From contig CAZWTX010000018.1 in assembly GCA_964637135.1 (NCBI GenBank), positions 1 to 47,146 on the forward strand: a stretch of DNA of 47,146 bases, in the 5' to 3' direction. Made by a program: the position numbers and the translations under genes. Positions 3 to 27,116 of the stretch are shown here, piece by piece (positions within the stretch are counted from its first letter, which is position 1; every line of letters starts with the position of its first letter). The notes below the pieces were generated by a model. The model saw only the letters and a program-made list of their open reading frames with translations. It was not told the DNA's origin and searched no databases. This DNA is from an uncultured Methanospirillum sp. (GTDB lineage Archaea; Halobacteriota; Methanomicrobia; Methanomicrobiales; Methanospirillaceae).

Positions 3-2849
3 CCGGGGATCTACCTCACCTTAAACCCGGTCAATCCGGCCCTCCTCTCCCGGCGAGCCAACCGGCTGAAGATGCGGTTATCCCGGTCCGATCAGACGAC
101 CGCAGACGGGGATATCCTCTGCCGGCGATGGCTGCCGGTGGATATCGATCCGGTCAGGCCGTCCGGGATCTCTGCGACCGATGAAGAGAAGGAGGCTGCC
201 CGGATCAAGGGAACCAATATCACCGCGTTCCTTGCCGAGAGGGGATTTCCCGACCCGGTGGTCGCCGACTCGGGGAACGGAACCCATCTCCTCTACCGGA
301 TCTATCTGCCGAATACGAATGCCTCGACCGAACTTGTCCACCGGTGCCTCTCGGTGCTCTCCGCTCTCTTTTCAGACGAGACCGCCCAGGTGGATACGGC
401 GGTTGCCAATCCGGCGAGGATCTGGAAGCTCTACGGTACCCTCTCCCGCAAAGGGGACAACACCGCTGAACGGCCACACCGGCGGTCGGCGATCCTCTCG
501 GTTCCGGCAGAAATACAGCCCGTTCCGACGTCGGATCTCGAACATCTTGCCGGGCTGCTCCCCGATGAAGCCCCGGCTCCACAGCGGCTCATCACGTTCC
601 GGCGGGCAAAGACCGATCTCGATACCTGGCTCTCCCGGCACCGGATCCCGGTCGTGTCAGAGAAGCCCTGGGAAGGAGGTGTCCTGTACCGGCTCGGCCG
701 GTGTCCGTTCTCCGAGGACCACACCGACGGGGCGTATGCCATCCGGTTCCCGGACGGGAAGATCCATCTCGGCTGCCATCACCAGCGATGCGGAGCCGGG
801 ACGAACCGGTGGCAGGAAGTCGCCGATATCCCGGTGCTCAGGCCTTCACGGGAGGTACAGCCGGATCCCCCGGCTGCGAGACCGGCCGGGGATCCGGTGA
901 ATACGCCGGTCATCAGCCCGGAACGGTCGAGGGCAGAGGCGATCCTGAAGAGCGATCCGGCCGGGTTCATCCTCTCGGTCTTTGGCCGGAGCCATGTCGG
1001 GGATGACGGCCTTGCCAGATCGCTCCTTGCCTCGGCGGCGTCCCGGCTGGTTCTGAATACGAAAGGGATCCATGTCCTCGTCTCCGGTGCATCCGGGAAG
1101 GGGAAGTCTGACGGGATGCGGACGATGCTCAGGCTTCTTCCGCCCGATCAGTCACTGAAAGGAAGGTTTTCTGATAAGGCCCTCTATTACAACCAGGAAC
1201 TCTCACCGGGGTCAATCCTGCTGCTTGACGATATGGTCCTCTCCGAGGATCTCCAGTCGGTGCTCAAGGAGTCGACGACGAGTTTTACCGAGCCGATCCT
1301 CCACCGGACGGTGGACAAGAGCCGCCAGCCGGTGACGCTTTCACTGCCGGAACGATGCATCTGGTGGATTGCGAACGTGCATACCGGCGGAGACGACCAG
1401 GTCTTAAACCGGATGCTGACGGTCTGGGTGGATGATTCCCCTGACCAGGATGCGGCCGTTTACCAGAGGAAACTCGAACACGAGGCAAGATTTCCGGCAG
1501 TCGATGCAGACGGCGACGAGGAAGTGGTCAGGGAGATCTGGCGGCGGCTCACGGCCGAGGGGCCGGTTCCGGTGAGAGTGCCATATGCCGGCCGGATCCG
1601 GATGAAGAACACGACAAACCGCCGGAATGTGGATCTCGTGCTTGACCTTATCAAGGCCCATGCCGTGCTCCACCGGTATTCGAGGACCGTGGAAGAGCAT
1701 CCGACCGGACCGGTGATCGTGGCCGGCAGGGATGATTTTGCGTTTGCCGCCCGGCTGTATGGAGATCTGCACGGATCCTGCGGGAGCCAGGATGCGAAAC
1801 TGACAAAGGATGAGTCACGGCTCGTGGATCTGATCCGGGAACTCTCATGCACGGAGTTTACCTACCGGGAGCTGATGTCCTGGACCGGCTGGAGTTATTA
1901 CAAGGCCCAGCGGGTGATGCGGGGCGATCACGAGGGGGAGCGGACCGGACGGTCCGGGCTGCTTGAGAAGATCGGCGGGATATCAGAGATGATGCAGAGT
2001 CGGACGATCATCCAGGCCAACGGCCGGGAGAGCCGCCGGTCATGCCGGGTCTTTCTCGTGGATCCGGATCACCTCACTTCCGGGCTGGGAAACGGGCTCA
2101 TCTGGCTTGAGGAGGACGAGGATCCCGGCCGGCAGGATCCGGGGTCAGGGTCGGGGAGCGATGTGAGCGGGTCGTGTGCGGTGGTTTCCGCTCAGGACGA
2201 AGTCTTTGATACTGGTCCGGATGACGGTGAAATGGTAGGTATCGGGGAGATCAGATCGGCCGATCCCGTCCTGAACGGAGATCTTCAGGCAGAGAGGAGA
2301 CAGGTGGTGGAAGCGGTCTTCCGGCAGGGTCGTCCCCTGATCCCGGGATCAGGTGCTCAGGACGATTCCGGGGATCTGAATTCCGGCCATGATGGTCCGG
2401 ACGGACGTTTTATCGCTGATCCGGCGGATTCGTCCCGAGCGGATCCTGACCGCTCAGCACCCGCTCAGGACGGGGGGAGGGGGATAGTGTTGTCAGCGAT
2501 CGATCCGGGGGATTATGTCCGGCTTGAGATCCGGGAGCGAAGGCCCTGTTCCTGTTGCGGTAAATCTCATACTGAATTCCGGGAACGGATGACCAGGGAT
2601 CGGATGAACGATCCTCCCCGGCCAAACCGGATGTTATGTACAGAATGTTACCAGGCGACGGTGATCCGGCGGTCCCGGTCGATTACGACGCTGCCGGGGT
2701 CGATCGAGGTGTCTGGGATGAAACGGTGGTCAGTTCCCTTGGGCCGGTGTCATGTCTGCGGAGGAGGAGCGATCGAGTGGTATGATCCGGTCGGACATGT
2801 GGGGCTGTGTGAGATGTGTTATGGGAGGGAGAAAGGCATTGTCTCGTGA
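3..2849 (+). CDS. Primase/helicase-like replication protein of a mobile element (AEP-type primase + Zn finger + P-loop AAA+ + C-terminal Zn ribbons); 5' end lies outside the window
   Basis: The frame is open from position 3 (PGIYLTLNPVNPALLSRRANRLK) into the ATG at 72. AEP-like motifs are VDID, DSGNGTHL and ARIWKLYGT. Also present: CPFSEDH...CHHQRC Zn motif, Walker A GASGKGKS, Walker B LLLDD, and C-terminal CSCC/CTEC and CHVC/CEMC pairs. Confidence 0.75.
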   Translation, partial: PGIYLTLNPVNPALLSRRANRLKMRLSRSDQTTADGDILCRRWLPVDIDPVRPSGISATDEEKEAARIKGTNITAFLAERGFPDPVVADSGNGTHLLYRIYLPNTNASTELVHRCLSVLSALFSDETAQVDTAVANPARIWKLYGTLSRKGDNTAERPHRRSAILSVPAEIQPVPTSDLEHLAGLLPDEAPAPQRLITFRRAKTDLDTWLSRHRIPVVSEKPWEGGVLYRLGRCPFSEDHTDGAYAIRFPDGKIHLGCHHQRCGAGTNRWQEVADIPVLRPSREVQPDPPAARPAGDPVNTPVISPERSRAEAILKSDPAGFILSVFGRSHVGDDGLARSLLASAASRLVLNTKGIHVLVSGASGKGKSDGMRTMLRLLPPDQSLKGRFSDKALYYNQELSPGSILLLDDMVLSEDLQSVLKESTTSFTEPILHRTVDKSRQPVTLSLPERCIWWIANVHTGGDDQVLNRMLTVWVDDSPDQDAAVYQRKLEHEARFPAVDADGDEEVVREIWRRLTAEGPVPVRVPYAGRIRMKNTTNRRNVDLVLDLIKAHAVLHRYSRTVEEHPTGPVIVAGRDDFAFAARLYGDLHGSCGSQDAKLTKDESRLVDLIRELSCTEFTYRELMSWTGWSYYKAQRVMRGDHEGERTGRSGLLEKIGGISEMMQSRTIIQANGRESRRSCRVFLVDPDHLTSGLGNGLIWLEEDEDPGRQDPGSGSGSDVSGSCAVVSAQDEVFDTGPDDGEMVGIGEIRSADPVLNGDLQAERRQVVEAVFRQGRPLIPGSGAQDDSGDLNSGHDGPDGRFIADPADSSRADPDRSAPAQDGGRGIVLSAIDPGDYVRLEIRERRPCSCCGKSHTEFRERMTRDRMNDPPRPNRMLCTECYQATVIRRSRSITTLPGSIEVSGMKRWSVPLGRCHVCGGGAIEWYDPVGHVGLCEMCYGREKGIVS

Positions 2850-3347: not shown

Positions 3348-6134
3348 ATGACTGACCGATCAGAATATCTCACCCGGAAAGAGAAGATAGATCCACTTCT
3401 TTTTGAGCAGGGATGGGATGTTTCTGATCGCTCCCATATCAGGGTGGAGATTGACACAAAGCAGTCCGGATTTCTACTGAAAGATTACCGAACAGTGTCA
3501 GAGACACTGAAAAATGACTTGGAGAGTAAGTATGCTGATTATCTCCTCCTCGATTCTGCAGGATCTCCACTTGCTGTTGTTGAGGCGAAACGGACGAGTA
3601 AAGATCCGCTCGTAGGTCAGAAGCAGGCTGAAGAATATGCAAATGACATCAAGGCCCAGACCGGCAGAGACGTCTTCATTTTTCTGACCAACGGAGAGAG
3701 TATCAAGTTCTGGGACCGGACCCGGGCCGGGGTGAGGGAGGTATCAGGTTTTTATTCCCGGAGAGATTTAGAACGCATCAGGTTTCAGAATGAGCATCTG
3801 ATGCTTGAAGCTCCGGTTGTAGTCAATACCGATATTGTTGATCGGGCCCGGAATATTGAGAATGTTAAACGAGTGGTTGAACACATTCTCAAAGGTCATC
3901 GCAAGGCACTCATTGTAATGGCTACAGGGACTGGAAAAACCCGGGTTGCGATGGGAATTATTGACCTTCTGATGAAGATGCACCTCGTTCAGCGGGTGCT
4001 CTTTCTTGCAGACCGGAAGGCCCTCCGGGACCAGGCGATGGATAAGGGATATCTGGAATTCTTTTCTGAAGAGTCAAAAAATACGATCAGGGGGAAAGAG
4101 TACAATCCTGATGCCCGTCTGTATGTCTCGACGATCCAGACATTCATGGAGATATATCAGAACCGGGATGAGCAGGGACGGCTGATTATGTCTCCCGGTG
4201 AGTTTGATCTGATCTTTTCTGATGAGGCTCACCGGTCTATCTATAACAAGTGGCGTGATGTGTTTACCTACTTTGATGGGGTTCAGATCGGGCTTACTGC
4301 AACCCCCTCGGAATTGGTGGACCGTGATACATTCCAGTTTTTTGACTGTTATGATGATACCCCTACTGCCCTGTATGAGTACTCTGATGCGGTGAAAGAC
4401 GGGGTACTCGTTGATTTTCGTCAGAGTGTGATATCAGCCCAGACTCATTTCCAGATAGAAGGAGTAAAACCTAAAGACCTCTCTGAAGAGGAGCGTGATC
4501 GTCTCATTGCGAAAGGGATTGATCCTGATGAGGTGGATTTTGAAGGGTCTGAGCTTGAGAAGAAGGTGGCAGTTCTCGGGACGAGTATTGCGATTGTCAG
4601 GGAGTTCATGGATAACTGCCAGATGGATGCCACCGGAACCCTCCCGGCAAAGACGATCTTCTTTGCGATAACAAAAAATCATGCCCACCGGCTTCAGGAA
4701 GCCTTTGACAAGTTATATCCGGAATACAAAGGCGACCTTGCAAGAGTGATTATTTCCGAAGATTCACGTTCAGATACGTTGATCAAAGAATTTTCAGATA
4801 AGTCAATACCCAGGATCGCTATCTCTGTTGATATGCTTGATACCGGTGTTGATGTGCCAGAGGTCTGCAACCTGGTCTTTGCAAAACCGGTGTTCTCAAA
4901 GATTAAGTTCTGGCAGATGATCGGACGGGGTACCCGATCCGAGGAGGCCTGTAAGCACAAGGAATGGCTGCCTGAAGGGGGAAAGGATTACTTTTCTATC
5001 TTTGACTTCTGGAATAATTTCGAGTATTTCAATATGAAACCGGACGGGGTGGAGGCTGGGCCCATCATCCCGATGACCGGAAGGGTATTCCTTGTGAGGG
5101 TTCAGCAACTGGAGCATCACATCAGGGCAAGAAATGAGGTGAGGACCAATCAGATACGCACCCTGATTGAAGAGACGATAACTGCCCTTCCCATGGATTC
5201 GGTGACCGTCAGGGCTGCTAATGACTCTATTAAGAAGGTGCTATCAGGGTGGATCTGGGATAATGTGGGAGTAGACCCGGTTTCATTTCTCAAGAGAGAG
5301 ATGATGCCCCTGATGCGGTTTGCAGTTGGGACAAACTTGTCTGTTGCATCCTTTACCCTGAAGTATGAAAAACTGGCATACGCCGTGCTGAAGCACAACG
5401 ACACCGAGATAGAGCGATTGAAACCTGATATCGGTGACATGGTTGCCCGGCTTCCGATGACCATAGATGCGGTGAAAGCAGAGGAGGCTCTGATTAAACG
5501 GGTGCTTTCACCCTCATTCTGGGTCTCTCCTGAGTATGATGAGGTCAGGGAGGTTGGCACTCGGCTTGCTCCCCTGATGAAGTACATGCAGAAAGAGACT
5601 TTTGAGCCGATTGTCATCAGAATGGGGGATACCGTGGAGAAGTGGGTTCAGATGCAGATTGCTGAACCTGATATTCCTTATGTGGTGAACTACCTGGAAC
5701 GGGTGATGGGCAGGATTATCTCACTGATCTCTTCAGTTCCGGCAATAGAGAAGATAGAACGGGGTGAAGAGGTCACGGATGCAGAGATCAGGGAGATTGA
5801 GACGGCCCTAAACCGAGCAGGAGTTCCGGTCCATGCCTCGTTCAAAGGCAGGATCGTTGACCTGATTAAGACTGCCATAGACCAGGATCACAAGAGAGTG
5901 GAAGCGTCATTTGAGAAGTATATCCGGGAGCACCAGGGACAGTACACCGCTGACCAGATTTCATTCATCAGGATACTGAAGATAAATTTCATGAAGAGGC
6001 GGCATATTGAGCGGGGTGATCTGTTTGAGGCTCCGTTTACGAACCTTGGGTTGCATGTTCCGATCCCGATGTTCTCAGAAGAAGAGATAGATACGTTGAT
6101 CGGGCTGTGCGATGGGCTTGATATTTATTCCTAA
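3348..6134 (+). CDS. hsdR: Type I restriction enzyme R subunit (EcoAI/EcoEI-like)
   Basis: Nuclease motif YADYLL...VVEAK; helicase motifs MATGTGKT, DEAH, LTATP, DMLDTGVD, QMIGRGTR. Confidence 0.95.
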   Translation: MTDRSEYLTRKEKIDPLLFEQGWDVSDRSHIRVEIDTKQSGFLLKDYRTVSETLKNDLESKYADYLLLDSAGSPLAVVEAKRTSKDPLVGQKQAEEYANDIKAQTGRDVFIFLTNGESIKFWDRTRAGVREVSGFYSRRDLERIRFQNEHLMLEAPVVVNTDIVDRARNIENVKRVVEHILKGHRKALIVMATGTGKTRVAMGIIDLLMKMHLVQRVLFLADRKALRDQAMDKGYLEFFSEESKNTIRGKEYNPDARLYVSTIQTFMEIYQNRDEQGRLIMSPGEFDLIFSDEAHRSIYNKWRDVFTYFDGVQIGLTATPSELVDRDTFQFFDCYDDTPTALYEYSDAVKDGVLVDFRQSVISAQTHFQIEGVKPKDLSEEERDRLIAKGIDPDEVDFEGSELEKKVAVLGTSIAIVREFMDNCQMDATGTLPAKTIFFAITKNHAHRLQEAFDKLYPEYKGDLARVIISEDSRSDTLIKEFSDKSIPRIAISVDMLDTGVDVPEVCNLVFAKPVFSKIKFWQMIGRGTRSEEACKHKEWLPEGGKDYFSIFDFWNNFEYFNMKPDGVEAGPIIPMTGRVFLVRVQQLEHHIRARNEVRTNQIRTLIEETITALPMDSVTVRAANDSIKKVLSGWIWDNVGVDPVSFLKREMMPLMRFAVGTNLSVASFTLKYEKLAYAVLKHNDTEIERLKPDIGDMVARLPMTIDAVKAEEALIKRVLSPSFWVSPEYDEVREVGTRLAPLMKYMQKETFEPIVIRMGDTVEKWVQMQIAEPDIPYVVNYLERVMGRIISLISSVPAIEKIERGEEVTDAEIREIETALNRAGVPVHASFKGRIVDLIKTAIDQDHKRVEASFEKYIREHQGQYTADQISFIRILKINFMKRRHIERGDLFEAPFTNLGLHVPIPMFSEEEIDTLIGLCDGLDIYS

Positions 6135-6290
6135 ATTAAGTAGATTTATGTGAGTGCTCAAGTATATTAACTCATATTTGCACAAAATAGGTAACCTTTA
6201 AGGTCTTCAATAGTAACAAAATGAATAAGAGAACTCTGGTTGCAAACCTGATTTGTCTTATAATTAGGATTCAAGGTGAAGGGAGGAATT

Positions 6291-6797
6291 ATGACGGAAG
6301 ATAACCGGCGGGAGCTGATTCTTGCTAATATTCTTAATTTACTCCACTATGATACCATCAACACAGATGAGTTTAATAACCGGATTATCTATCAAAAGAT
6401 TGTTTATCTTCTGCAATATCTTGGAATATCGTTAGGATACCGATTCAACTGGTATATTCGTGGGCCATATTCACCACTGTTAACAAGGACCCTATATAAT
6501 CTATCTGAAAATTCAGAATTGCAACAATCTGGAAGAGAAAAACAATTAAAAAATGTTGATGAGATTGAAAGAAGAATTGCAGAGTTGCAAAAAGTTGTCG
6601 ATCGTCATCATGATGATGCAATGTTCCTTGAAATCCTGGCTTCTTTGGCATATATTAAAAGAAGTAATCCAAGAAAGTACACCCATGACAACATTATTGA
6701 AAAGTTGTACATGCAAAAACCATTCATTAAGGAATTAACAAACTATCAGGATATTTGCTCTGAAGCATTACACACTCTTGAACACTTAGAGAATTAA
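6291..6797 (+). CDS. YwgA/SocA(Panacea)-like winged-helix protein
   Basis: Motif QKIVYLLQ...YRFNWYIRGPYS and C-terminal LEILASLAYI. GGAGG RBS precedes the ATG at 6291 (the ORF track starts at GTG 6276). Confidence 0.65.
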   Translation: MTEDNRRELILANILNLLHYDTINTDEFNNRIIYQKIVYLLQYLGISLGYRFNWYIRGPYSPLLTRTLYNLSENSELQQSGREKQLKNVDEIERRIAELQKVVDRHHDDAMFLEILASLAYIKRSNPRKYTHDNIIEKLYMQKPFIKELTNYQDICSEALHTLEHLEN

Positions 6798-6802
6798 TTG
6801 AA

Positions 6803-8371
6803 ATGGGTAATTATTGCCAATCAGAAACACCCATTTTTGATAATGTTCATGGTTTTATTTATCCAACTACATTAGAATTATCGATAATTAACTCTCCTTT
6901 TTTTCAGCGATTACGTGATATAAAGCAATTGGGTCTTGTTGAGTATGTATTTCCCGGTGCCAGTCATAATCGGTTTAGTCATTCATTGGGGGTTATGCAT
7001 CTAGCTGGGAAAATGGCTGCTACTATTATTAGGAACCAACAAGAGAGGGGTGAAGTAGAGTTAGACCTAAAAAAAATTCGGTTGGCTGCATTATTACATG
7101 ATATTGGCCATTATCCCTGGTCTCATACTGTCGAATATGTTGTTAGAAAGCAAACAGATAGTAATAATATCCCATTCTGGAATTATCTGGATGGTCCAGA
7201 CAAACCACAGTTAACTCCTGAATTTACTGAAGAATCCGAAAGAAGTAGACCTGAAGAAATCCCTATCCCACAGAAAACACATCTTCTAAATTGCCGGTTA
7301 AATGGAGAAGGAGATTATGCTCATCATGAAAAGATGGCTGGAATTGTTATATATAATTCCAGTGTTTATGATTTGCTGAAGGGTGATGGACTCACTGATG
7401 ATGATATAGATGATATATGCAAACTCATTTCAGGACAGTATTCAGAAGGGTTAGAACAGAGTCTCATTCATTCTGAACTGGATGCAGATCGTTTTGACTA
7501 TTTGTTGAGAGATTCATACCATACCGGCGTATCATATGGTAATTTTGATGTTGAACAGATCATCAGGTATCTCGATATTCAATTTGACCCAAATGGTGGT
7601 AAAGAAAGCCCACAACAGTCATCCTATTTAGTCATTAACAAAAAAGGGCAACGAGCCGTAGAAGATTATCTTATTGCCAGATATTTCCTGTATTCAACGG
7701 TTATTTATCACAAAGCAAATATTTCGTTTAATGCGGTTGCAGAACGGGTATACGAAGGTCTTCTAGAGCGTAATTTAGTCCCTTCGTATGTTAATATACT
7801 GGAATGGTTTGAAAAAACATCAGGAAACGAACCTAATCATCCATATCTCGACTTCACTGATACTTCACTTATCCGGTTATTGCGAGATATATGCTTCCAA
7901 AAGAAAAAACTTGAGAATCCTCCTGATCCTGTAATTTCTACAGATATATTGTATGATCTGATCTGTAAAATTGTCCATCGCGAACCTTTAAAGCAGATTT
8001 ATGAGAATACGGTTCTCACGAGCCGAAGTAACCGGGGGCCATATGATGATGTATGGAATATGAAACTTTCCGAGCAAGAAAGGAAATTTAGAACGAGAGG
8101 ATTGGATGATTCATGGTTGATTCAAACTCATGTAACCACATCTGTTACATCCATTAAGCCCTATGTTTCTATTTTTGACGGTCAGAGTTCCGCTAATCCG
8201 GATGAGGCTATCAGGATATTTAATCCAAAAAATCAGGTGAAGCCAATTTCAATTCTTTCAGATGATGATACTTCAATAATTAAAGTACTTGCAGATAAGG
8301 ATCTTATTATCCGTGGATTGTATACAAAGAATGATGAGTATAAAAGTATTCTAAATTCTGGAGTGAACTAA
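6803..8371 (+). CDS. HD-domain phosphohydrolase, SAMHD1/YwfO-like dNTP triphosphohydrolase family
   Basis: DNVHG, FQRLRDIKQLG, FPGASHNRFSHSLG, LLHDIGH, HHE, LDADRFDYLLRD, RYFLYSTVIYH. Confidence 0.9.
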   Translation: MGNYCQSETPIFDNVHGFIYPTTLELSIINSPFFQRLRDIKQLGLVEYVFPGASHNRFSHSLGVMHLAGKMAATIIRNQQERGEVELDLKKIRLAALLHDIGHYPWSHTVEYVVRKQTDSNNIPFWNYLDGPDKPQLTPEFTEESERSRPEEIPIPQKTHLLNCRLNGEGDYAHHEKMAGIVIYNSSVYDLLKGDGLTDDDIDDICKLISGQYSEGLEQSLIHSELDADRFDYLLRDSYHTGVSYGNFDVEQIIRYLDIQFDPNGGKESPQQSSYLVINKKGQRAVEDYLIARYFLYSTVIYHKANISFNAVAERVYEGLLERNLVPSYVNILEWFEKTSGNEPNHPYLDFTDTSLIRLLRDICFQKKKLENPPDPVISTDILYDLICKIVHREPLKQIYENTVLTSRSNRGPYDDVWNMKLSEQERKFRTRGLDDSWLIQTHVTTSVTSIKPYVSIFDGQSSANPDEAIRIFNPKNQVKPISILSDDDTSIIKVLADKDLIIRGLYTKNDEYKSILNSGVN

Positions 8372-8547: not shown

Positions 8548-9744
8548 ATGGACAGTGAACTGCCAGATGGATGGGAGTGGAAAAGATTTGATGAAATTGG
8601 AAATATTTTTGCTGGTAGTACACCATCGACGCTAGATGAAAGTAATTTTAATGGTGACATTCCCTGGGTTACCCCTGCAGATTTGGGTAAAACCAAAAAT
8701 ATGTTCATTCAAAACGGACAAAAAAATATTTCTGAAAAGGGGCTTAAATCATCCTCTATTCCACTACTCCCTAAAGGAACGATTCTCTTTTCTTCACGAG
8801 CTCCGATAGGATATGTTGCAATTGCATCCAATGAGATCACTACGAATCAAGGTTGTAAAAATTTAGTTTTAAATGCTGGGATATTACCTGAATTTGTTTA
8901 TTTTTACATCAAAAAAAATGGAGAATACTTAGAATCATTAGGATCAGGATCTACATTTAAGGAACTCTCCAAAACTCGTTTTTCACAGATTATTATTCCA
9001 ATCCCTCCTCTTGAAACCCAGCGACAGATCGTTCTCATCCTTGAGAAAGCGGATACCATCCGGCGATTGCGGGCAGAATCAGATGCTCTGACGCAGCGGC
9101 TGCTCCAGAGTGTATTTTTAGAGATGTTTGGGGACCCGGTGACGAATCCGATGGGGTGGGATAAGAAAAAAATATCCGAAATCTGTATTCGGCATTTTGG
9201 GGGAGGAACCCCAAGTAAATCTAATGCCGAATATTATTTAGGAGATATTCCCTGGGTATCTCCTAAAGATATGAAAAAGGATTTCATTTTAGACAGTATC
9301 GATCATATCACCGAGGAGGCAGTTAATAATAGTGCCACAAAATTGGTCCCTAAATTCTCATTATTGATGGTAATTCGCAGTGCCATTTTGAAAAAGTATT
9401 TGCCTGTCGCAATTAACCTCAAACCCGTCACAATTAATCAAGACATGAAAGCCTTTATTATTAATACGAAAATTATTTCGCCATATTATTTTCTATATCT
9501 CTTAAAATCTTATCAGAGCCAGTTACTCCAGCGGGTGAGATCTGTAACCGCAGATAATATTGAGTTCGATATGATTCTTAATTCAGAAATCCCAACCCCT
9601 CCACTAAATATTCAAATAAAATTCGAAAATATGGTTAAAGGAGGAAAAGGGATTTCCGACTGTCAAGAAAAGAATAATTTAATGAGTAATGAACTATTTG
9701 ACTCTCTCATGGCAAAAGCATTCACCGGAGAACTCGTTACATGA
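8548..9744 (+). CDS. hsdS: Type I R-M specificity subunit
   Basis: LPDGWEW start, two TRDs (GSTPS...DIPWV; GGTPS...DIPWV), central IPIPPLETQRQIV...MFGDP region, C-terminal KAFTGEL. Confidence 0.95.
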   Translation: MDSELPDGWEWKRFDEIGNIFAGSTPSTLDESNFNGDIPWVTPADLGKTKNMFIQNGQKNISEKGLKSSSIPLLPKGTILFSSRAPIGYVAIASNEITTNQGCKNLVLNAGILPEFVYFYIKKNGEYLESLGSGSTFKELSKTRFSQIIIPIPPLETQRQIVLILEKADTIRRLRAESDALTQRLLQSVFLEMFGDPVTNPMGWDKKKISEICIRHFGGGTPSKSNAEYYLGDIPWVSPKDMKKDFILDSIDHITEEAVNNSATKLVPKFSLLMVIRSAILKKYLPVAINLKPVTINQDMKAFIINTKIISPYYFLYLLKSYQSQLLQRVRSVTADNIEFDMILNSEIPTPPLNIQIKFENMVKGGKGISDCQEKNNLMSNELFDSLMAKAFTGELVT

Positions 9745-11129
9745 CTCCCCGGGAGTCAGACACCCAGGAGTTCAAACGCTCATTCTCCCAAATTGACCCC
9801 TCCCTGAAATCTGTCTGTGGATTCCTCAACCATCACGGCGGTGTAATTACCTTTGGGAGATCAGACACCGGAGATCCCATCGGTATCACTCCTGCAGATC
9901 ACAGCCTTCGCAAACTCTCACAGCAGATTACATCCCGGATTAAACCTGAAATATCACCAGATATCAGGGTCATCGAGGAGTCAGGGGTGCAATTGGTTAC
10001 GGTCACCGTCCCTGAAGGAACCAATAAACCCTATTTCCTGGATGGAATAGCATACATCAGGGTAGGCACTGAAAACCGTATTATTCCTCCTGATGAACTT
10101 AAGAGAATTATCCGTTCTTCTCCTGAATCACCATGGGATAACGAATTCTGCATCGGTGCTACAGTTGATGACATCGATCCAGACATAGTAGAGACATTTC
10201 TCACATTGGTACGGCAGGAGCGGAGAATAGAGATTGAACCAGATATTTCAATTACTACTGCTCTTGAAAAACTCTATCTCATAAAAAATGGACTCATCAC
10301 CAATGCCGCAATCCTGCTATTTGGGACAAACCCTCAACAGTTTTTCATCCAATCAGAAGTACGATGCGGCCATTTTAAAGGATCAGATGTTACAACTCCT
10401 TTTATTTCGATGAAAGTGATCAGGGGAAATTTACTTAATCAGATAGAAGAGTCTGTGAAGTTCATCCTGGGCGAGATCCGAATGTCTGCATGGGTACCAA
10501 AAAATGAAATCCAGCGAAAAGAACAATGGGAATATCCATTAGAAGCTATCCGCGAGTCGGTGATAAACGCACTCTGTCATAGGGACTATCAATCCTCGGC
10601 AAATACACAGATTCGGATATATTCTAGAAAGATGGAGATCTACAATCCGGGAGAACTACCTTCTCCTCTCACTATAGAGGTAATAAAAGGGGATCATATC
10701 TCAGTTCCCAGAAATAAACTCATTGCACAGATGTTATTCCTGTCCGGTTTCATCGAACAGTGGGGATCTGGTATAAATCATATAATTAGAGCCTGCCGGG
10801 AAAGTAGCCTCCCTGATCCAGAATTTACTGAATCAGCCAGCGTATTCTCGATCACCTTTACCAGGTCAAGTCTGATAGATATCCTTGAAGATCCTTCCAT
10901 TCTCAATGATCGTCAGAAGGATATCCTTGATTATCTCAAAACATCAGACCATATAACCCTTTCAGAATATGCTAACAAGTATAATTGTAATCAGAAGACC
11001 GCACAACGCGATCTTGGAAAACTAGTTTCCCTGAATCTTGTTAATAAATCTGGAAAAACTAGGGCAACGAGATACATTCTCTCAGAATCGATGAAAGACT
11101 TTCCAGACAATTACGGACATGAGTCATAA
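9741..11129 (+). CDS. Schlafen/AlbA_2 + HATPase_c_4 (RecG-C-like) + C-terminal HTH protein
   Basis: ESDTQEFK...GFLNHHGG (AlbA_2/Schlafen); EAIRESVINALCHRDY, NPG, PRN, IEQWGSG; LNDRQ...TAQRDL HTH. ATGA overlap with the hsdS stop. Confidence 0.88.
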   Translation: MTPRESDTQEFKRSFSQIDPSLKSVCGFLNHHGGVITFGRSDTGDPIGITPADHSLRKLSQQITSRIKPEISPDIRVIEESGVQLVTVTVPEGTNKPYFLDGIAYIRVGTENRIIPPDELKRIIRSSPESPWDNEFCIGATVDDIDPDIVETFLTLVRQERRIEIEPDISITTALEKLYLIKNGLITNAAILLFGTNPQQFFIQSEVRCGHFKGSDVTTPFISMKVIRGNLLNQIEESVKFILGEIRMSAWVPKNEIQRKEQWEYPLEAIRESVINALCHRDYQSSANTQIRIYSRKMEIYNPGELPSPLTIEVIKGDHISVPRNKLIAQMLFLSGFIEQWGSGINHIIRACRESSLPDPEFTESASVFSITFTRSSLIDILEDPSILNDRQKDILDYLKTSDHITLSEYANKYNCNQKTAQRDLGKLVSLNLVNKSGKTRATRYILSESMKDFPDNYGHES

Positions 11130-11367: not shown

Positions 11368-12882
11368 ATGAGACTCGCTCCAGAACTTAAATCTGATATC
11401 GACACCCTCTGGGACCGGTTCTGGTCAGGAGGCATGTCAAATCCCCTTCAGTCCATCGAACAGATGTCATATCTCATCTTCATGAAACGACTTGAGGATA
11501 TGGACATTGTCGAGGAACGAAGAGCGTCGGCAAGAAAAATACCATACACCTCGATCTTTTCCGGACATGACGAATGCAGGTGGTCAAACTGGAAGAACTA
11601 TCCGGCAGACCAGATGCTTGCACACGTACGTGATGTCGTCTTCCCCTTCATCAAAACAATCTCAAACGGGGAGAAGAGCAGGTTTTCAGAGCACATGAAG
11701 GATGCAGTCTTCATTATCGCAAAAGCCTCACTCCTTCAGGAAGCAGTATCAATTCTTGACCGGATGGATATCACTGCACGAAACCGGGACACCCAGGGTG
11801 ATATCTACGAGTACCTCCTCTCCCAACTCTCAACCGCAGGAAAAAACGGCCAGTTCCGTACACCTCGTCATATTATCAGGATGATGGTCGGACTTGTTGA
11901 TCCTGATATCAATGACCGGGTATGTGACCCGGCCTGCGGGACTGCAGGATTCCTGGTCAATGCCTATGAGCACATTATCCGGAGATATACAAGTCCTGAT
12001 ACCCTTAAGGTAGACGAGGATGGGGAATATACCAACCTTGTAGGGGATCATATCACCGAACCAGCCCACTGGGAAAAACTCTGGTCTGATACCTTCTACG
12101 GATTTGATTTCGACTCAACCATGGCCCGGATATCGGTCATGAACATGATGCTCCACGGAATTCGATCTCCGGAGATCCACAATATTGACACACTCTCAAA
12201 ACGATACACAGAAGAAGAGAAATATTCGGTAATTCTTGCAAATCCTCCGTTTAAGGGGAGTATCGACAAGAGTGACATTAGTGATAACCTTTCTCTGACA
12301 ACCACCAAAACCGAACTGCTCTTTGTGGAGAGGATGATTACACTTCTTGCAACCGGAGGAAGATGCAGTGTTATCGTTCCGGATGGGGTATTATTTGGAT
12401 CATCCAACGCCCATAAAAACCTCAGAAAGATGCTCCTTGAAACCTGTCAACTCGAAGGGATAGTATCAATGCCATCCGGTGTGTTCAAACCCTATGCCGG
12501 GGTCTCCACTGCTGTCATCACATTTGTAAAAGGAGGAAATACAAACCGGGTCTGGTTCTACAACATGGAGTCAGACGGGTACTCTCTTGATGACAAGCGG
12601 AACCGGATCGATGGGAGAGGTGATATTCCTGATATCATTGAGAGGTTCAAAGCACGGAAGAAGGAGAACCCCACCGACCGGAAAGAAAAATGCTTCTTTG
12701 TGCCGGTTGATGAGATCAAAGCAAACAATTTTGATCTCTCAATATCCCGATATAAAGAGATCGAATATGAGCAGGTTATGTATGACCCACCAGAAAAAAT
12801 CATAACAGAGATCGAGATAATAGAGCAGGAAATTCTCAAAAATCTGGGAGATTTAAAAAGAATGTTGAAAAAAGGCGGGTAG
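11368..12882 (+). CDS. hsdM: Type I R-M N6-adenine methyltransferase subunit
   Basis: GQFRTPRHI, DPACGTAGFL (motif I), NPPF (motif IV), VPDGVLF. Confidence 0.95.
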   Translation: MRLAPELKSDIDTLWDRFWSGGMSNPLQSIEQMSYLIFMKRLEDMDIVEERRASARKIPYTSIFSGHDECRWSNWKNYPADQMLAHVRDVVFPFIKTISNGEKSRFSEHMKDAVFIIAKASLLQEAVSILDRMDITARNRDTQGDIYEYLLSQLSTAGKNGQFRTPRHIIRMMVGLVDPDINDRVCDPACGTAGFLVNAYEHIIRRYTSPDTLKVDEDGEYTNLVGDHITEPAHWEKLWSDTFYGFDFDSTMARISVMNMMLHGIRSPEIHNIDTLSKRYTEEEKYSVILANPPFKGSIDKSDISDNLSLTTTKTELLFVERMITLLATGGRCSVIVPDGVLFGSSNAHKNLRKMLLETCQLEGIVSMPSGVFKPYAGVSTAVITFVKGGNTNRVWFYNMESDGYSLDDKRNRIDGRGDIPDIIERFKARKKENPTDRKEKCFFVPVDEIKANNFDLSISRYKEIEYEQVMYDPPEKIITEIEIIEQEILKNLGDLKRMLKKGG

Positions 12883-12943: not shown

Positions 12944-12989
12944 CAATCCTCTCTCTACACCCCGGGTAGGAACCGGATCACCGGCACAC
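12944..12989 (+). repeat. 46-bp imperfect direct repeat, copy 1
   Basis: caatcctctctctacaccccgggtaggaaccggatcaccggcacac; 39/46 identical, ungapped, to 14113-14158. Confidence 0.8.
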
Positions 12990-13437
12990 ACCTGACCAGA
13001 CGGATCTGGTCCTGACCATTCTCTCATAATCGTTCGTCACAAGGATGGATTCGCCCACAACCCCTGGCCTGGGAAAACCAGTAAAGGGCAGGAATACCAG
13101 TCACCGGGATGCCCTTATACCAGACCTGAACCCGCTTCCCTTCGTCTCCACCTCCTGTTCGAAACTCTGTCTCTGATTATGCACAGACCGATAGACCGCA
13201 GGATTTCATCAAAGAATATATTGCCCATTCTGACAAAAGGAGAGATAACAGCAGAATAGACCGATGATACTTCTTGCTCATAATAAAGCGGTTCCTGAAG
13301 GGATGTACCTGATTGGATATCGGACAAGAGGAGAGGTTTGGTTATTGGGTGAGCCACCGGTAAAGACAGATCCCGTCATGCTCAACAATTCTGAGCTGAA
13401 AGAGACACTATATCCTGAAGAAATATCCGGAACACGT

Positions 13438-13746
13438 ATGAAAATAGCACAAATCCCTTCTGATATCCGTTCAAAAATCATTCCACAGTATCGGATTTCA
13501 GCGATCTGGATCTTCGGTTCTGCAGTCCGTGATGATTTCTCTGATGAAAGTGACATTGATCTGGTCGTTGAATTCGAGCCGGATGCACGAATAACCCTGC
13601 GTATACTTGCCTCATTACAGACAGAACTGGAAAAGGCATTTGGAAGAAAGGTGGATCTCATCACCCGGAAAGCCATCGATGATTTCATGAATCCAATTCT
13701 GAAACAAGAGATTCTGTCCTCCATGGTCAAAATGTATGGATCGTGA
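13438..13746 (+). CDS. mntA: Minimal nucleotidyltransferase (MNT) antitoxin
   Basis: FGSAVRDDFSDESDIDL (GSx10DxD), LEKAFGRKVDL. Start uncertain (13438 or 13378; the ORF track gives 13264). Confidence 0.88.
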   Translation: MKIAQIPSDIRSKIIPQYRISAIWIFGSAVRDDFSDESDIDLVVEFEPDARITLRILASLQTELEKAFGRKVDLITRKAIDDFMNPILKQEILSSMVKMYGS

Positions 13747-14060
13747 TCGTTCCCTCCTTGCAGATATCAAAACGATGTGCTCTGATGCCATCTGTTTTTC
13801 TCGGAGATCGAAGCAGGGAAGATCTCCAACAGGATCGCCAGTTACAATATGCCTTAATCCGGTGCCTGGAAGTGAACGGTGAAGAAGCAAAACTGATCTC
13901 ATCAGATACGAAAACCAAATACCCCGGGATTCCATGGTCAGATTATGCTAAAACCCGTGATTTTCTGATTCATTCATACGCCAAAGTTGACATTGACATC
14001 ATCTGGCAAACGGTGAAATATGATCTCCCCGACCTCATGCGAATCCTCAACACCAGTTAA
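13736..14060 (+). pseudogene. hepT: HEPN (DUF86/HepT) RNase toxin, apparently frameshifted at a T5 run
   Basis: The ATG at 13736 reads MDRDRSLLADIKTMCSDAICF. Removing one T from 13795-13799 joins it to LGDRSREDLQQD...IRCLEVNGEEAK...PW...RDFLIHSY (Rx4HxY). Confidence 0.75.
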
Positions 14061-14112
14061 CCCTTTTTGCATCCAGAACAGTGGCATGTACAGATAATAA
14101 CCGGGATTCTCA

Positions 14113-14158
14113 CAATCCCCTCTCTACACTCCCGGCAGGAATCAGATCACCGGCATAC
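14113..14158 (+). repeat. 46-bp imperfect direct repeat, copy 2
   Basis: caatcccctctctacactcccggcaggaatcagatcaccggcatac. Confidence 0.8.
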
Positions 14159-25535: not shown

Positions 25536-26156
25536 ATGAATCAAATCACCCGGGGATTCCTCATCATCATCATTATCGCGGAGATTTTCACGGTGTGCAA
25601 TGCCGGTCAGATCACCATCGATCCCGTCGGGCCACCGGCACCTGGTGATTCTCTCACCCTCTCCGGAACCAAACCGGAAAACACCTCCCGTCTCGGGATT
25701 GAAATTTTTCCGGCCCGGTACTGGGAATATGCCTGCAGGTATGGCGAGATGACCCATGCAAAGCATTTCCGCTTTGTTCTTCAATGGATTACCGAATCGC
25801 TAAATAATGCCCCGTTTGTAAAACTCGTCAGGTTCAACCCGGACAAGACGCAGTCATACATCGTGTACCCGAATTGTCCTGAACACATCCTGATTCATCC
25901 GTACGTTCCTTCCGGGCCGGGACGGGAAAAATGGAGCCTGAATCTCGACCAAAAGGCCGGGCGACGAAACCTGCGTCCCGGATCCTATATCATCCTCGCC
26001 TGGGATGCCTCGGGTCAGATCCTCTATTCAGACACCTACCAGCCGAACGGATGGGATACCAGCGGGAAGTACCTGTACCCGGCTACGATGCGGGGAAATA
26101 TCTGGGATCTTGAGAATAAACAGGAGTGTGCGAACCGGATCTTTTCAGTCCGGTGA
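25536..26156 (+). CDS. Hypothetical secreted protein
   Basis: GGAGA RBS, signal-peptide-like N-terminus, ITIDPVG...LTLSGT Ig-like start. Confidence 0.6.
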   Translation: MNQITRGFLIIIIIAEIFTVCNAGQITIDPVGPPAPGDSLTLSGTKPENTSRLGIEIFPARYWEYACRYGEMTHAKHFRFVLQWITESLNNAPFVKLVRFNPDKTQSYIVYPNCPEHILIHPYVPSGPGREKWSLNLDQKAGRRNLRPGSYIILAWDASGQILYSDTYQPNGWDTSGKYLYPATMRGNIWDLENKQECANRIFSVR

Positions 26157-27116
26157 ACCGGGACCGGAAGACCCGTCCGGCGGATCATAGTTCATCACGA
26201 TTATCTCGTGGATTTCTCCCCGTTTTTCGGCGACGCTGTTGATCAGTCGTTTTGCAAGTACCCGCTCGATCCTATATTTACGGTAGAGATCGTCAAAGAA
26301 CTCGTCTTCCGGATCCTCGTTCTTCGGGTCAGAGTTGCTCAGCATGATCTTTGCCCCGGTCTGATCGATCCCGGCAAAGAATGCGGCAAGCCGTCTCTGA
26401 TCCCCGTCAGAGAACCCGTCCTGTGAATACGAGGTGAACTTTGCCGTCCGGCTGATGGGCCGGTAGGGAGGATCGATGTACACGAAGGTCTCCCTGTCGA
26501 TGAATTCCCGGCACGACTCGAAATCACCGAGCAGGATCCTCGTATTGGCAAGCAGGGCCGAGACCTTGAGCAGGTTCGGTTCGTTTACGATCCGGGGATG
26601 CTTATACCGTCCGAACGGGACATTGAACTCGCCCTTCGAATTGAGCCTGAAGAGTCCGTTAAAACAGGTCCGGTTCAGGAAGATGAGTTTTGCTGCCCGT
26701 TCAGCCCAGGCAGGACTCATCCGGGTATAATCGAAGCCCTTCTTCTCTGCATTCAGGTCATCCCTGATTTCATAGAACATCCGGCTTCTTCCCTCTTCGT
26801 CAAGGGAGTCATACCGCTCCTGGTATCCGGAGAGAAGCCTGATAAGAGTCATCACATCCTCCCGGACCGCCCGGTAGGTAAGCACCAGTTCCTCGTTCAC
26901 GTCGCAGAGGATCGCCTCCCTGACCGGGCAGGTCTGGACCACGTGGAAGAAAACCGCACCGCCCCCGGTGAACGGCTCCACGTACCGGGTCAGTCTTCCA
27001 GATCGCAACTCTTCCGGGAACCGTGCCTCGAACTCGGGGATCAGCTGGCCTTTTCCCCCGGCCCACTTGAAAAACGGGCCGGCAGGTCCTTTTTCCTGGT
27101 TTGACGTTCGTCTCAT
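26145..27116 (-). CDS. dam: DNA adenine methyltransferase, Dam/D12 class (orphan)
   Basis: FKWAGGK, YVEPFTGGGAV, FNGLFRLN..G.FNVPFG, YIDPPY, MLSNS. Confidence 0.9.
   Translation of the reverse strand: MRRTSNQEKGPAGPFFKWAGGKGQLIPEFEARFPEELRSGRLTRYVEPFTGGGAVFFHVVQTCPVREAILCDVNEELVLTYRAVREDVMTLIRLLSGYQERYDSLDEEGRSRMFYEIRDDLNAEKKGFDYTRMSPAWAERAAKLIFLNRTCFNGLFRLNSKGEFNVPFGRYKHPRIVNEPNLLKVSALLANTRILLGDFESCREFIDRETFVYIDPPYRPISRTAKFTSYSQDGFSDGDQRRLAAFFAGIDQTGAKIMLSNSDPKNEDPEDEFFDDLYRKYRIERVLAKRLINSVAEKRGEIHEIIVMNYDPPDGSSGPGSPD

Follow-up and report, generated by a model that had tools for sequence, protein, structure and literature searches.

We describe two adjacent open reading frames, ORF1 and ORF2, at positions 6291 to 8371 of a 47,146-nucleotide stretch of DNA from an uncultured Methanospirillum sp. 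(contig CAZWTX010000018.1, hereafter the window), where they are inserted between hsdR and hsdS of a type I restriction-modification (R-M) operon. ORF1 (6291..6797, forward strand, 168 aa) is a stand-alone DarG C-terminal-like (YwgA-like) protein and a predicted antitoxin or regulator, and ORF2 (6803..8371, forward strand, 522 aa) is an EF1143/SAMHD1-type HD phosphohydrolase of a mobile lineage and the predicted effector. The pair is well supported as a unit, and its role in defence is predicted. The explanation that we tentatively favor, every functional step of which we infer, is a mobile antiviral switch, similar to a type II toxin-antitoxin system, that is both antitoxin-restrained and nucleotide-depleting. 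ORF1 would bind ORF2 and hold it inactive, infection would free or activate ORF2, and the released enzyme would hydrolyze deoxynucleoside triphosphates (dNTPs), starving the virus.

A first-pass annotation of this DNA had placed the two genes between hsdR and hsdS with a gap of 5 bp, and these coordinates are correct. ORF1 starts at an ATG at 6291 that is preceded by GGAGG, with an alternative in-frame GTG at 6276 also possible. The upstream flank is hsdR (3348..6134, forward strand), an EcoAI/FtnUII-like type I restriction subunit by Pfam, PADLOC and NCBIfam, and the downstream flank is hsdS (8548..9744, forward strand; Methylase_S E 1e-50). The annotation had also pointed to base composition, and its sampled counts are exact (15/60 guanine plus cytosine, GC, at 6841-6900 and 44/60 at 841-900). 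Overall, the pair has 35.9% GC compared to 52.4% for the genome, a level equally low in 5/1288 genome windows of the same size. However, hsdS is almost as AT-rich at 37.6% GC, so the pair cannot be separated from the R-M operon by GC alone, and low GC was dropped as evidence of insertion.

Gene order in relatives provides that evidence instead. A close hsdR occurs in 25 other genomes, and in 16/16 of the orthologous loci fetched from them hsdR adjoins hsdS directly and the pair is absent. In particular, a genome of the same genus (G008) has the order hsdR (82% identical)-hsdS-AlbA (65%)-hsdM (88%), with no extra genes in the hsdR-hsdS gap. The window has the corresponding passenger gene in the same place (Schlafen/AlbA_2 + HATPase_c_4 + HTH, 9741..11129, forward strand), followed by hsdM (11368..12882, forward strand; N6_Mtase + HsdM_N; PADLOC MTase_I E 7e-178), and this passenger is thus already in the G008 locus that is without ORF1-ORF2. 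ORF1-ORF2 is therefore an insertion between hsdR and hsdS, as the first-pass annotation had proposed, and the R-M system does not need the pair. No repeats bound the cassette and no tRNA was found; the promoter scan was at chance level (10 versus 12.9), and the upstream gap has no match to the pattern used for a TFB recognition element (BRE)/TATA-like signal.

The two genes travel together. The close clade of ORF2 comprises about 99 proteins above a clear score gap, and its named members are Methanosarcinales, Methanomicrobiales and a few bacteria, which corrects the earlier idea of an archaeal module. Of the distinct clade loci that include upstream DNA, 21/21 have an ORF1 homologue directly upstream of the HD gene, at a gap of -58 to +24 bp (two further loci have no upstream DNA). 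The distances among partners track those among HD proteins (Mantel rho 0.65, 0/2000 permutations), which shows co-inheritance of ORF1 and ORF2, not binding. Both genes are under purifying selection, with a ratio of nonsynonymous to synonymous substitution rates (dN/dS) of 0.03-0.18 in 8/12 gene comparisons, these being the unsaturated ones. Two loci have a broken HD gene and a whole partner (L206, 4380-5956, premature stop at codon 348; L254, split gene). No ORF1-HD fusion occurs among 120 HD proteins, where the extra length of the 589-684 aa forms is due to other inserts. Among longer proteins, a search for ORF1 fusions returned one DarG only, which is weak evidence. For more distant HD proteins, the partner may be upstream, downstream or even convergent; several such pairs, mostly from gut bacteria such as Gastranaerophilales, are adjacent but tail to tail (L059, L073, L074, L093, L094, L098, L100, L126).

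The clade is also rare, being present in 8/401 genomes of the order and 5/401 of the phylum with its own genome counted. An ordinary SAMHD1-like HD gene, on the other hand, is found in 61/61 relatives and in the host itself (contig C44), and its locus is syntenic and partnerless, lying beside cofD, ubiX/ubiD or thiolase genes in the controls that were scanned. The cassette is AT-richer than its flanks in 17/17 loci. Among phages there were nine weak records, none of the ORF2 clade, and the three examined had no partner; IMG/VR yielded 13 distant loci, again none of the clade, and PHROGs holds no family for ORF1 and two of unknown function for ORF2.

ORF1 has no Pfam match, but NCBIfam relates it to the C-terminal half of DarG (model positions 171-299, E 1.3e-7), and the sole convincing match in a profile search was 7yk3_B (E 5.6e-7). 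The predicted model is helical with a predicted local distance difference test score (pLDDT) of 95, and it aligns to 7yk3 with Z 12.8 and a root-mean-square deviation of 3.0 over 150 residues (next row 4.3). The DarG model is matched by 57/71 family members. The family has 5,644 cluster representatives, and 23/60 relatives carry a member. We fetched 22 loci of ORF1 relatives, in nine of which the gene lies directly upstream of MazF/PemK, mostly in the arrangement winged helix-turn-helix (wHTH)-X-MazF, and in two of which a DarG lies beside DarT; the remainder were two beside an HD gene, five wHTH-X loci with no toxin found, and four others. The ORF1 family thus occupies the antitoxin slot next to two unrelated known toxins, MazF and DarT. 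In the case of DarTG, the C-domain of DarG is reported to bind and occlude DarT (PMC11481870, citing Deep et al. 2023).

The earlier description of ORF1 as an antitoxin-like protein of the Panacea/YwgA kind holds in its first part, given the DarG C-domain fold and the relatives beside MazF and DarT. The Panacea identity was rejected, as 0/71 family members match Pfam SocA_Panacea (PF13274) at E 0.05, and DarG-C is the closest domain; the sole Panacea lead is a language-model score of 0.84 to a cluster with 13% Panacea. Residues G58-P59 of ORF1 are invariant, with Tyr as the third residue, which can be compared with the GPV signature motif described for Panacea (PMC8832971). The JGI name on a protein 87% identical to ORF1 is 'uncharacterized protein YwgA'; YwgA (COG3465) is, according to the first-pass annotation, the neighbor of the HD protein YwfO in Bacillus. 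As side observations, methanogen relatives include several wHTH - DarG-C-like - MazF/PemK operons (L235, L238, L240, L244, L247-L249, L251, L253) whose middle gene has no Pfam match and resembles an uncatalogued MazF antitoxin, with the wHTH and DarG-C parts fused in L253, and in L245 (198-1983) a DarG-C-like gene is convergent with one that encodes 426 aa and belongs to no known family.

ORF2 matches 2o6i in sequence (phmmer E 2e-33), and its predicted fold is the EF1143/SAMHD1 catalytic core (Foldseek 4lrl E 2e-19; 2hek TM-score 0.88 by target). The HD metal site, H60, H99-D100 and D229, is present, so the catalytic motifs are intact as first annotated. These residues together with H103, H108, E111, H175 and E176 are kept in 97-99 of 99 clade proteins, nearly all misses being gaps, and the triphosphate and 3'-OH residues are essentially invariant across the clade. 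ORF2 retains the ribose gate L43 and the 3'-OH contacts Q42, Y233, D237 and Y297, and because of this its substrate is probably still a deoxynucleotide. The first allosteric-site residues N30, Q35, R38, F58, R393 and K397 are kept as well; we take R393 and K397 to be equivalent to SAMHD1 R451 and K455.

The substrate pocket is where ORF2 departs from its relatives. The SAMHD1 triad L150/Y315/Y374 is not fully kept: L43 and Y233 are retained, but the Y374 position is Ile301 (codon 7703..7705, forward strand). This assignment is based on alignment to 2o6i, in which Ile301 aligns with EF1143 Y243, and Ile301 is eight residues past the pocket Arg, like R366/Y374 in SAMHD1. That spacing (PMC7045340) and the location of Y374 in the lining of the base/sugar pocket (PMC7045340; PMC3190883) are described for SAMHD1, and EF1143 Y243 is reported to touch the substrate nucleoside (PMC3190883). 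Tyr is found at this position in 0/99 clade proteins (88 Ile, 5 Val, 5 Leu, 1 Met), compared to 40/40 partnerless HD proteins in the fetched loci. Distant partnered HD proteins in those loci are mixed (61 Tyr, 18 another residue), and the 25 with too little flank comprise 24 Tyr and one Leu. Wherever flanking DNA is present, the gene of a non-Tyr enzyme is accompanied by a partner gene. In SAMHD1, the Y374I mutant shows no dGTP hydrolysis, and Y374F and L150V are reported to be dead too (PMC5207538), which makes SAMHD1 appear fragile at this pocket in general. The first-pass call of a SAMHD1-like HD dNTPase, made with no mention of Ile301, is therefore sound in fold and catalytic residues, whereas plain dNTPase activity is in doubt.

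The altered pocket comes with a lineage-specific insert (7136..7324, forward strand; residues 112-174), which lies between the equivalents of SAMHD1 H215 and H233. The spacing from H108 to H175 is 67 residues in ORF2 versus 10 in EF1143, so the extra segment first seen between SHTVE and HHE is real and amounts to 57 residues. Its acidic and Pro-rich part spans residues 128-156 (8 D/E and 6 P in 29), of which 137-149 are predicted by pLDDT to be disordered, followed by a helix at 157-167 in which H160 is invariant across 67 rows. The equivalent spacing is 40-78 residues in 41/41 non-Tyr rows, one of which duplicates the window, versus 10-35 in 123/123 Tyr rows. A tree was built from every one of the 39 non-Tyr rows and 55 Tyr rows chosen at random, 94 in total, with five partial rows left out. 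On it, two changes are required to explain the non-Tyr state, which lies within a single supported group of 41 that mixes methanogens, Bacillota, Melainabacteria, Elusimicrobiota and Planctomycetota. The Tyr replacement and the long insert are probably one evolutionary event and not independent observations. Together, Ile301 and the adjacent insert suggest an altered base preference or activation, or else a pocket that must be remodelled to become functional, and the insert may serve as a docking site or lid. Three clade members (P0071, P0080, P0097) carry one or two extra domains of about 90 residues inside the HD enzyme.

Support for a defence role comes from the neighborhoods. Among the 16 other clade loci with long flanks (the window left out), 9/16 have defence genes within about 10 kb, as opposed to 1/14 core-HD control loci (14 of 20 fetched, 101 genes); an important caveat is that the Fisher p of 0.007 is overstated, because the controls are syntenic kin and have fewer genes scanned per locus than some clade loci. 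This agrees with the defence role that the first-pass annotation had proposed. The neighbors are type I R-M (L025, L026, L075), GmrSD and DUF499/DUF3780 (L027), an HmaA/BrxHII-like helicase (L032), Mrr plus an integrase and a replication gene (L113), RhuM (L115), SIR2-like and retron-type reverse transcriptase genes (L205), and, as the weakest call, DpdB-like and kinase genes (L024). Of 15 non-Tyr loci at a greater distance from the clade, six also adjoin restriction genes, which are of four kinds: type I (the second pair of L075, L098, L154), type ISP (L126), Dcm with a MutH-type gene (L074) and McrBC (L094). The HD proteins of L094 and L098 are near-identical. PADLOC matches to an ABC ATPase, generic methyltransferases, a pyridoxal phosphate enzyme and HEAT repeats were rejected as non-specific in clade (L031, L033) and control (L217, L225) loci alike. 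Two of these loci are unusual in their own right. In L075 (6820-18752), two different HD+partner pairs flank a type I R-M operon whose last gene is an additional one for a TATA-binding protein, and in L024 (618-9089) genes for a B12-binding protein, a DndB/DpdB-like protein, a GHKL ATPase, a Ser/Thr kinase and three unknown proteins lie upstream of the pair.

Several observations weigh against the antitoxin-restrained, nucleotide-depleting switch. No recognized defence neighbor is present in 7/16 clade loci (L028, L029, L030, L031, L033, L050, L206), and plasmids gave no match for either ORF1 or ORF2. Desulfurococcales have Tyr-type HD+partner pairs among housekeeping genes (thymidylate kinase, a diphthine-synthase-like methylase and FEN1), which indicates an old pairing that is not defensive in every case. 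The isoelectric point of ORF1 spans 4.9-9.6 within the clade, a poor fit to a conserved acidic DNA mimic. Finally, since SAMHD1 Y374I is dead on dGTP, ORF2 may have an output other than canonical dNTP depletion.

In a different account of the substrate, ORF2 would be specific for non-canonical nucleotides and ORF1 would be its regulator. The substrates would be modified dNTPs, either base analogues made by the virus or methylated dNTPs that are recycled when neighboring modification systems cut or mark host DNA. It fits this account that purifying selection acts on a lineage in which the insert is fixed together with the Tyr-to-Ile change, the latter at a position that lines the base/sugar pocket in SAMHD1 (PMC7045340; PMC3190883), and that the modification and restriction neighbors are varied (type I, type ISP, Dcm with MutH-type, McrBC, Mrr, GmrSD and DpdB-like). 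However, no one modification type recurs, any gene in a defence island would have such neighbors, and the 7/16 loci noted above have none, so we consider this specificity unlikely.

An addiction module that only stabilizes its island or integrative element, with no antiviral effect, would fit the toxin-antitoxin layout and the pairing of ORF1 relatives with MazF. The neighbors of the pair include an integrase and a replication gene at L113 and a transposase at L075, and the replication gene of the window (72-2849) is related to that of L113 (47%). On the other hand, the copies in L028, L029 and L031 stand alone among housekeeping genes, intact under purifying selection, and the pair was not found on plasmids. 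We consider pure addiction unlikely.

The sign of the interaction could also be reversed, with ORF1 as an activator or obligate subunit, either a sensor or a protein that completes the altered pocket, in place of an inhibitor. The partner beside every non-Tyr enzyme with flanking DNA, the sensor role proposed for Panacea (PMC10440598) and the conserved basic residues R31, K36 and K143 of ORF1 are consistent with this. The solved relative, DarG-C, is nevertheless an inhibitor, and the HD gene was lost before the partner in both broken loci seen, which makes an activator quite improbable. Equally improbable in our view is a housekeeping regulator of the dNTP pool that spread by hitchhiking and entered the R-M operon by chance: the Desulfurococcales pairs and the description of EF1143 as a pool-balancing dNTPase (PMC3190883) would accord with it, but the host already has the core enzyme (C44), and the clade is rare, AT-rich everywhere and defence-enriched. 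Lastly, the first-pass annotation had raised a PrrC-like guard, which would watch over the type I R-M complex and respond to its inhibition by a virus. In its favor are the position of the pair inside the R-M operon here and type I R-M within about 3 kb of 3/16 other clade loci versus 0/20 controls and 0.64% of the host genome. We nevertheless regard such a guard as highly improbable, because the difference from the controls has a Fisher p of 0.078, 13/16 loci have no type I system nearby, the adjacent R-M systems differ in subfamily and orientation, and the pair is absent from 16/16 orthologous R-M loci.

Other features of these loci deserve mention apart from the pair. In orthologous type I loci (L291-L294, L296, L288), varied AT-rich passenger genes occupy the hsdS-hsdM slot, which is likely a hotspot for undiscovered defence genes. 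Within the window, the replication-type gene at 72-2849 encodes 925 aa with no Pfam, NCBIfam or PHROG match and has relatives on contigs C30 and C41 and in the L113 integrative element. An MNT-HEPN toxin-antitoxin pair lies between 46-nt direct repeats (85% identical) at 12944-14158, and a solitary Dam-like (D12 class) adenine methyltransferase is encoded at 26145-27116.

If the antiviral switch that we favor is a defence system, it would be a protein-regulated one of the EF1143/SAMHD1 branch and hence a closer prokaryotic, and archaeal, counterpart of the human restriction factor. In the literature found, those nucleotide-depleting defences of prokaryotes that have been tested belong to the dGTPase branch or are deaminases. 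The natural Y374I-type change, which kills SAMHD1 on dGTP, offers a direct route to how the pocket sets specificity. The ORF1 family, with no Pfam model and three unrelated effectors as partners, extends the Panacea idea and could serve as bait for more toxins. A bolder proposal, which we regard as doubtful, is that of a new SAMHD1-type immune lineage of methanogens and bacteria, its pocket rebuilt against non-canonical or virus-specific nucleotides and gated by a DarG-C protein that would act as a universal inhibitor or sensor for HD, MazF and DarT effectors.

With respect to known systems, the pair has no match to a named one in PADLOC 2.0 or NCBIfam, which bears out part of the earlier claim that it is undescribed. 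ORF2 shares with the EF1143/SAMHD1 dNTPases (COG1078; PDB 2o6i, 4lrl, 9mr6) the fold, metal site, catalytic His/Glu, triphosphate, 3'-OH and first allosteric residues, but differs in the Ile for the pocket Tyr, the 57-residue insert and the obligatory partner gene; the Enterococcus and Listeria loci examined have no ORF1-like partner beside the HD gene. The stand-alone antiphage dGTPase (NF041026, PADLOC dGTPase), reportedly described by Tal et al., is likewise an HD triphosphohydrolase near defence genes, but it is a single-gene system, and ORF2 was rejected as a member (21.7 bits versus a cut-off of 400). PrrC and other effectors sit inside type I R-M operons. The pair has the same hsd-operon position as PrrC, but it has no ABC-ATPase/HEPN protein and its linkage to type I R-M is not conserved. 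ORF1 shares the fold and a sequence motif of DarG-C with DarTG (7yk3), although its 168 aa include no macrodomain and its neighbors are hsdR and the HD gene instead of DarT.

PanAT (Panacea/DUF4065) also couples a small GP-motif antitoxin-like protein to unrelated toxins, and stand-alone Panacea, for which a role as sensor has been put forward, is reported to act on toxins by direct neutralization (PMC10440598). Five predicted PanA + COG1078 HD pairs from Clostridia appear in Dataset S1 of PMC8832971 as toxin cluster T34 (HD, YdhJ/COG1078), marked 'notest', and in this respect the general Panacea+HD pairing is already catalogued as a prediction. Those pairs are toxin-first, and the ORF1 family has no PF13274 match. 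We found no paper on the pair or on the Ile/insert lineage with a stand-alone DarG-C partner, although supplementary lists of predicted systems elsewhere may hold it, and the main text of a survey of dGTPase-type defence proteins makes no mention of DarG or Panacea (PMC13519002). Clover provides the clearest precedent, since it consists of two genes, for CloA, a toxic dGTPase, and for CloB, the partner that keeps this dNTPase in check (PMC12265719), as predicted for ORF1-ORF2. CloB, however, is a nucleotidyltransferase that makes p3diT, whereas ORF1 has a helical DarG-C fold and no enzyme fold, and CloA is an octamer of the dGTPase family, whereas ORF2 is EF1143-type (PMC12265719). On the description available, Clover is the closest working analogue of ORF1-ORF2, but with an enzyme as the partner.

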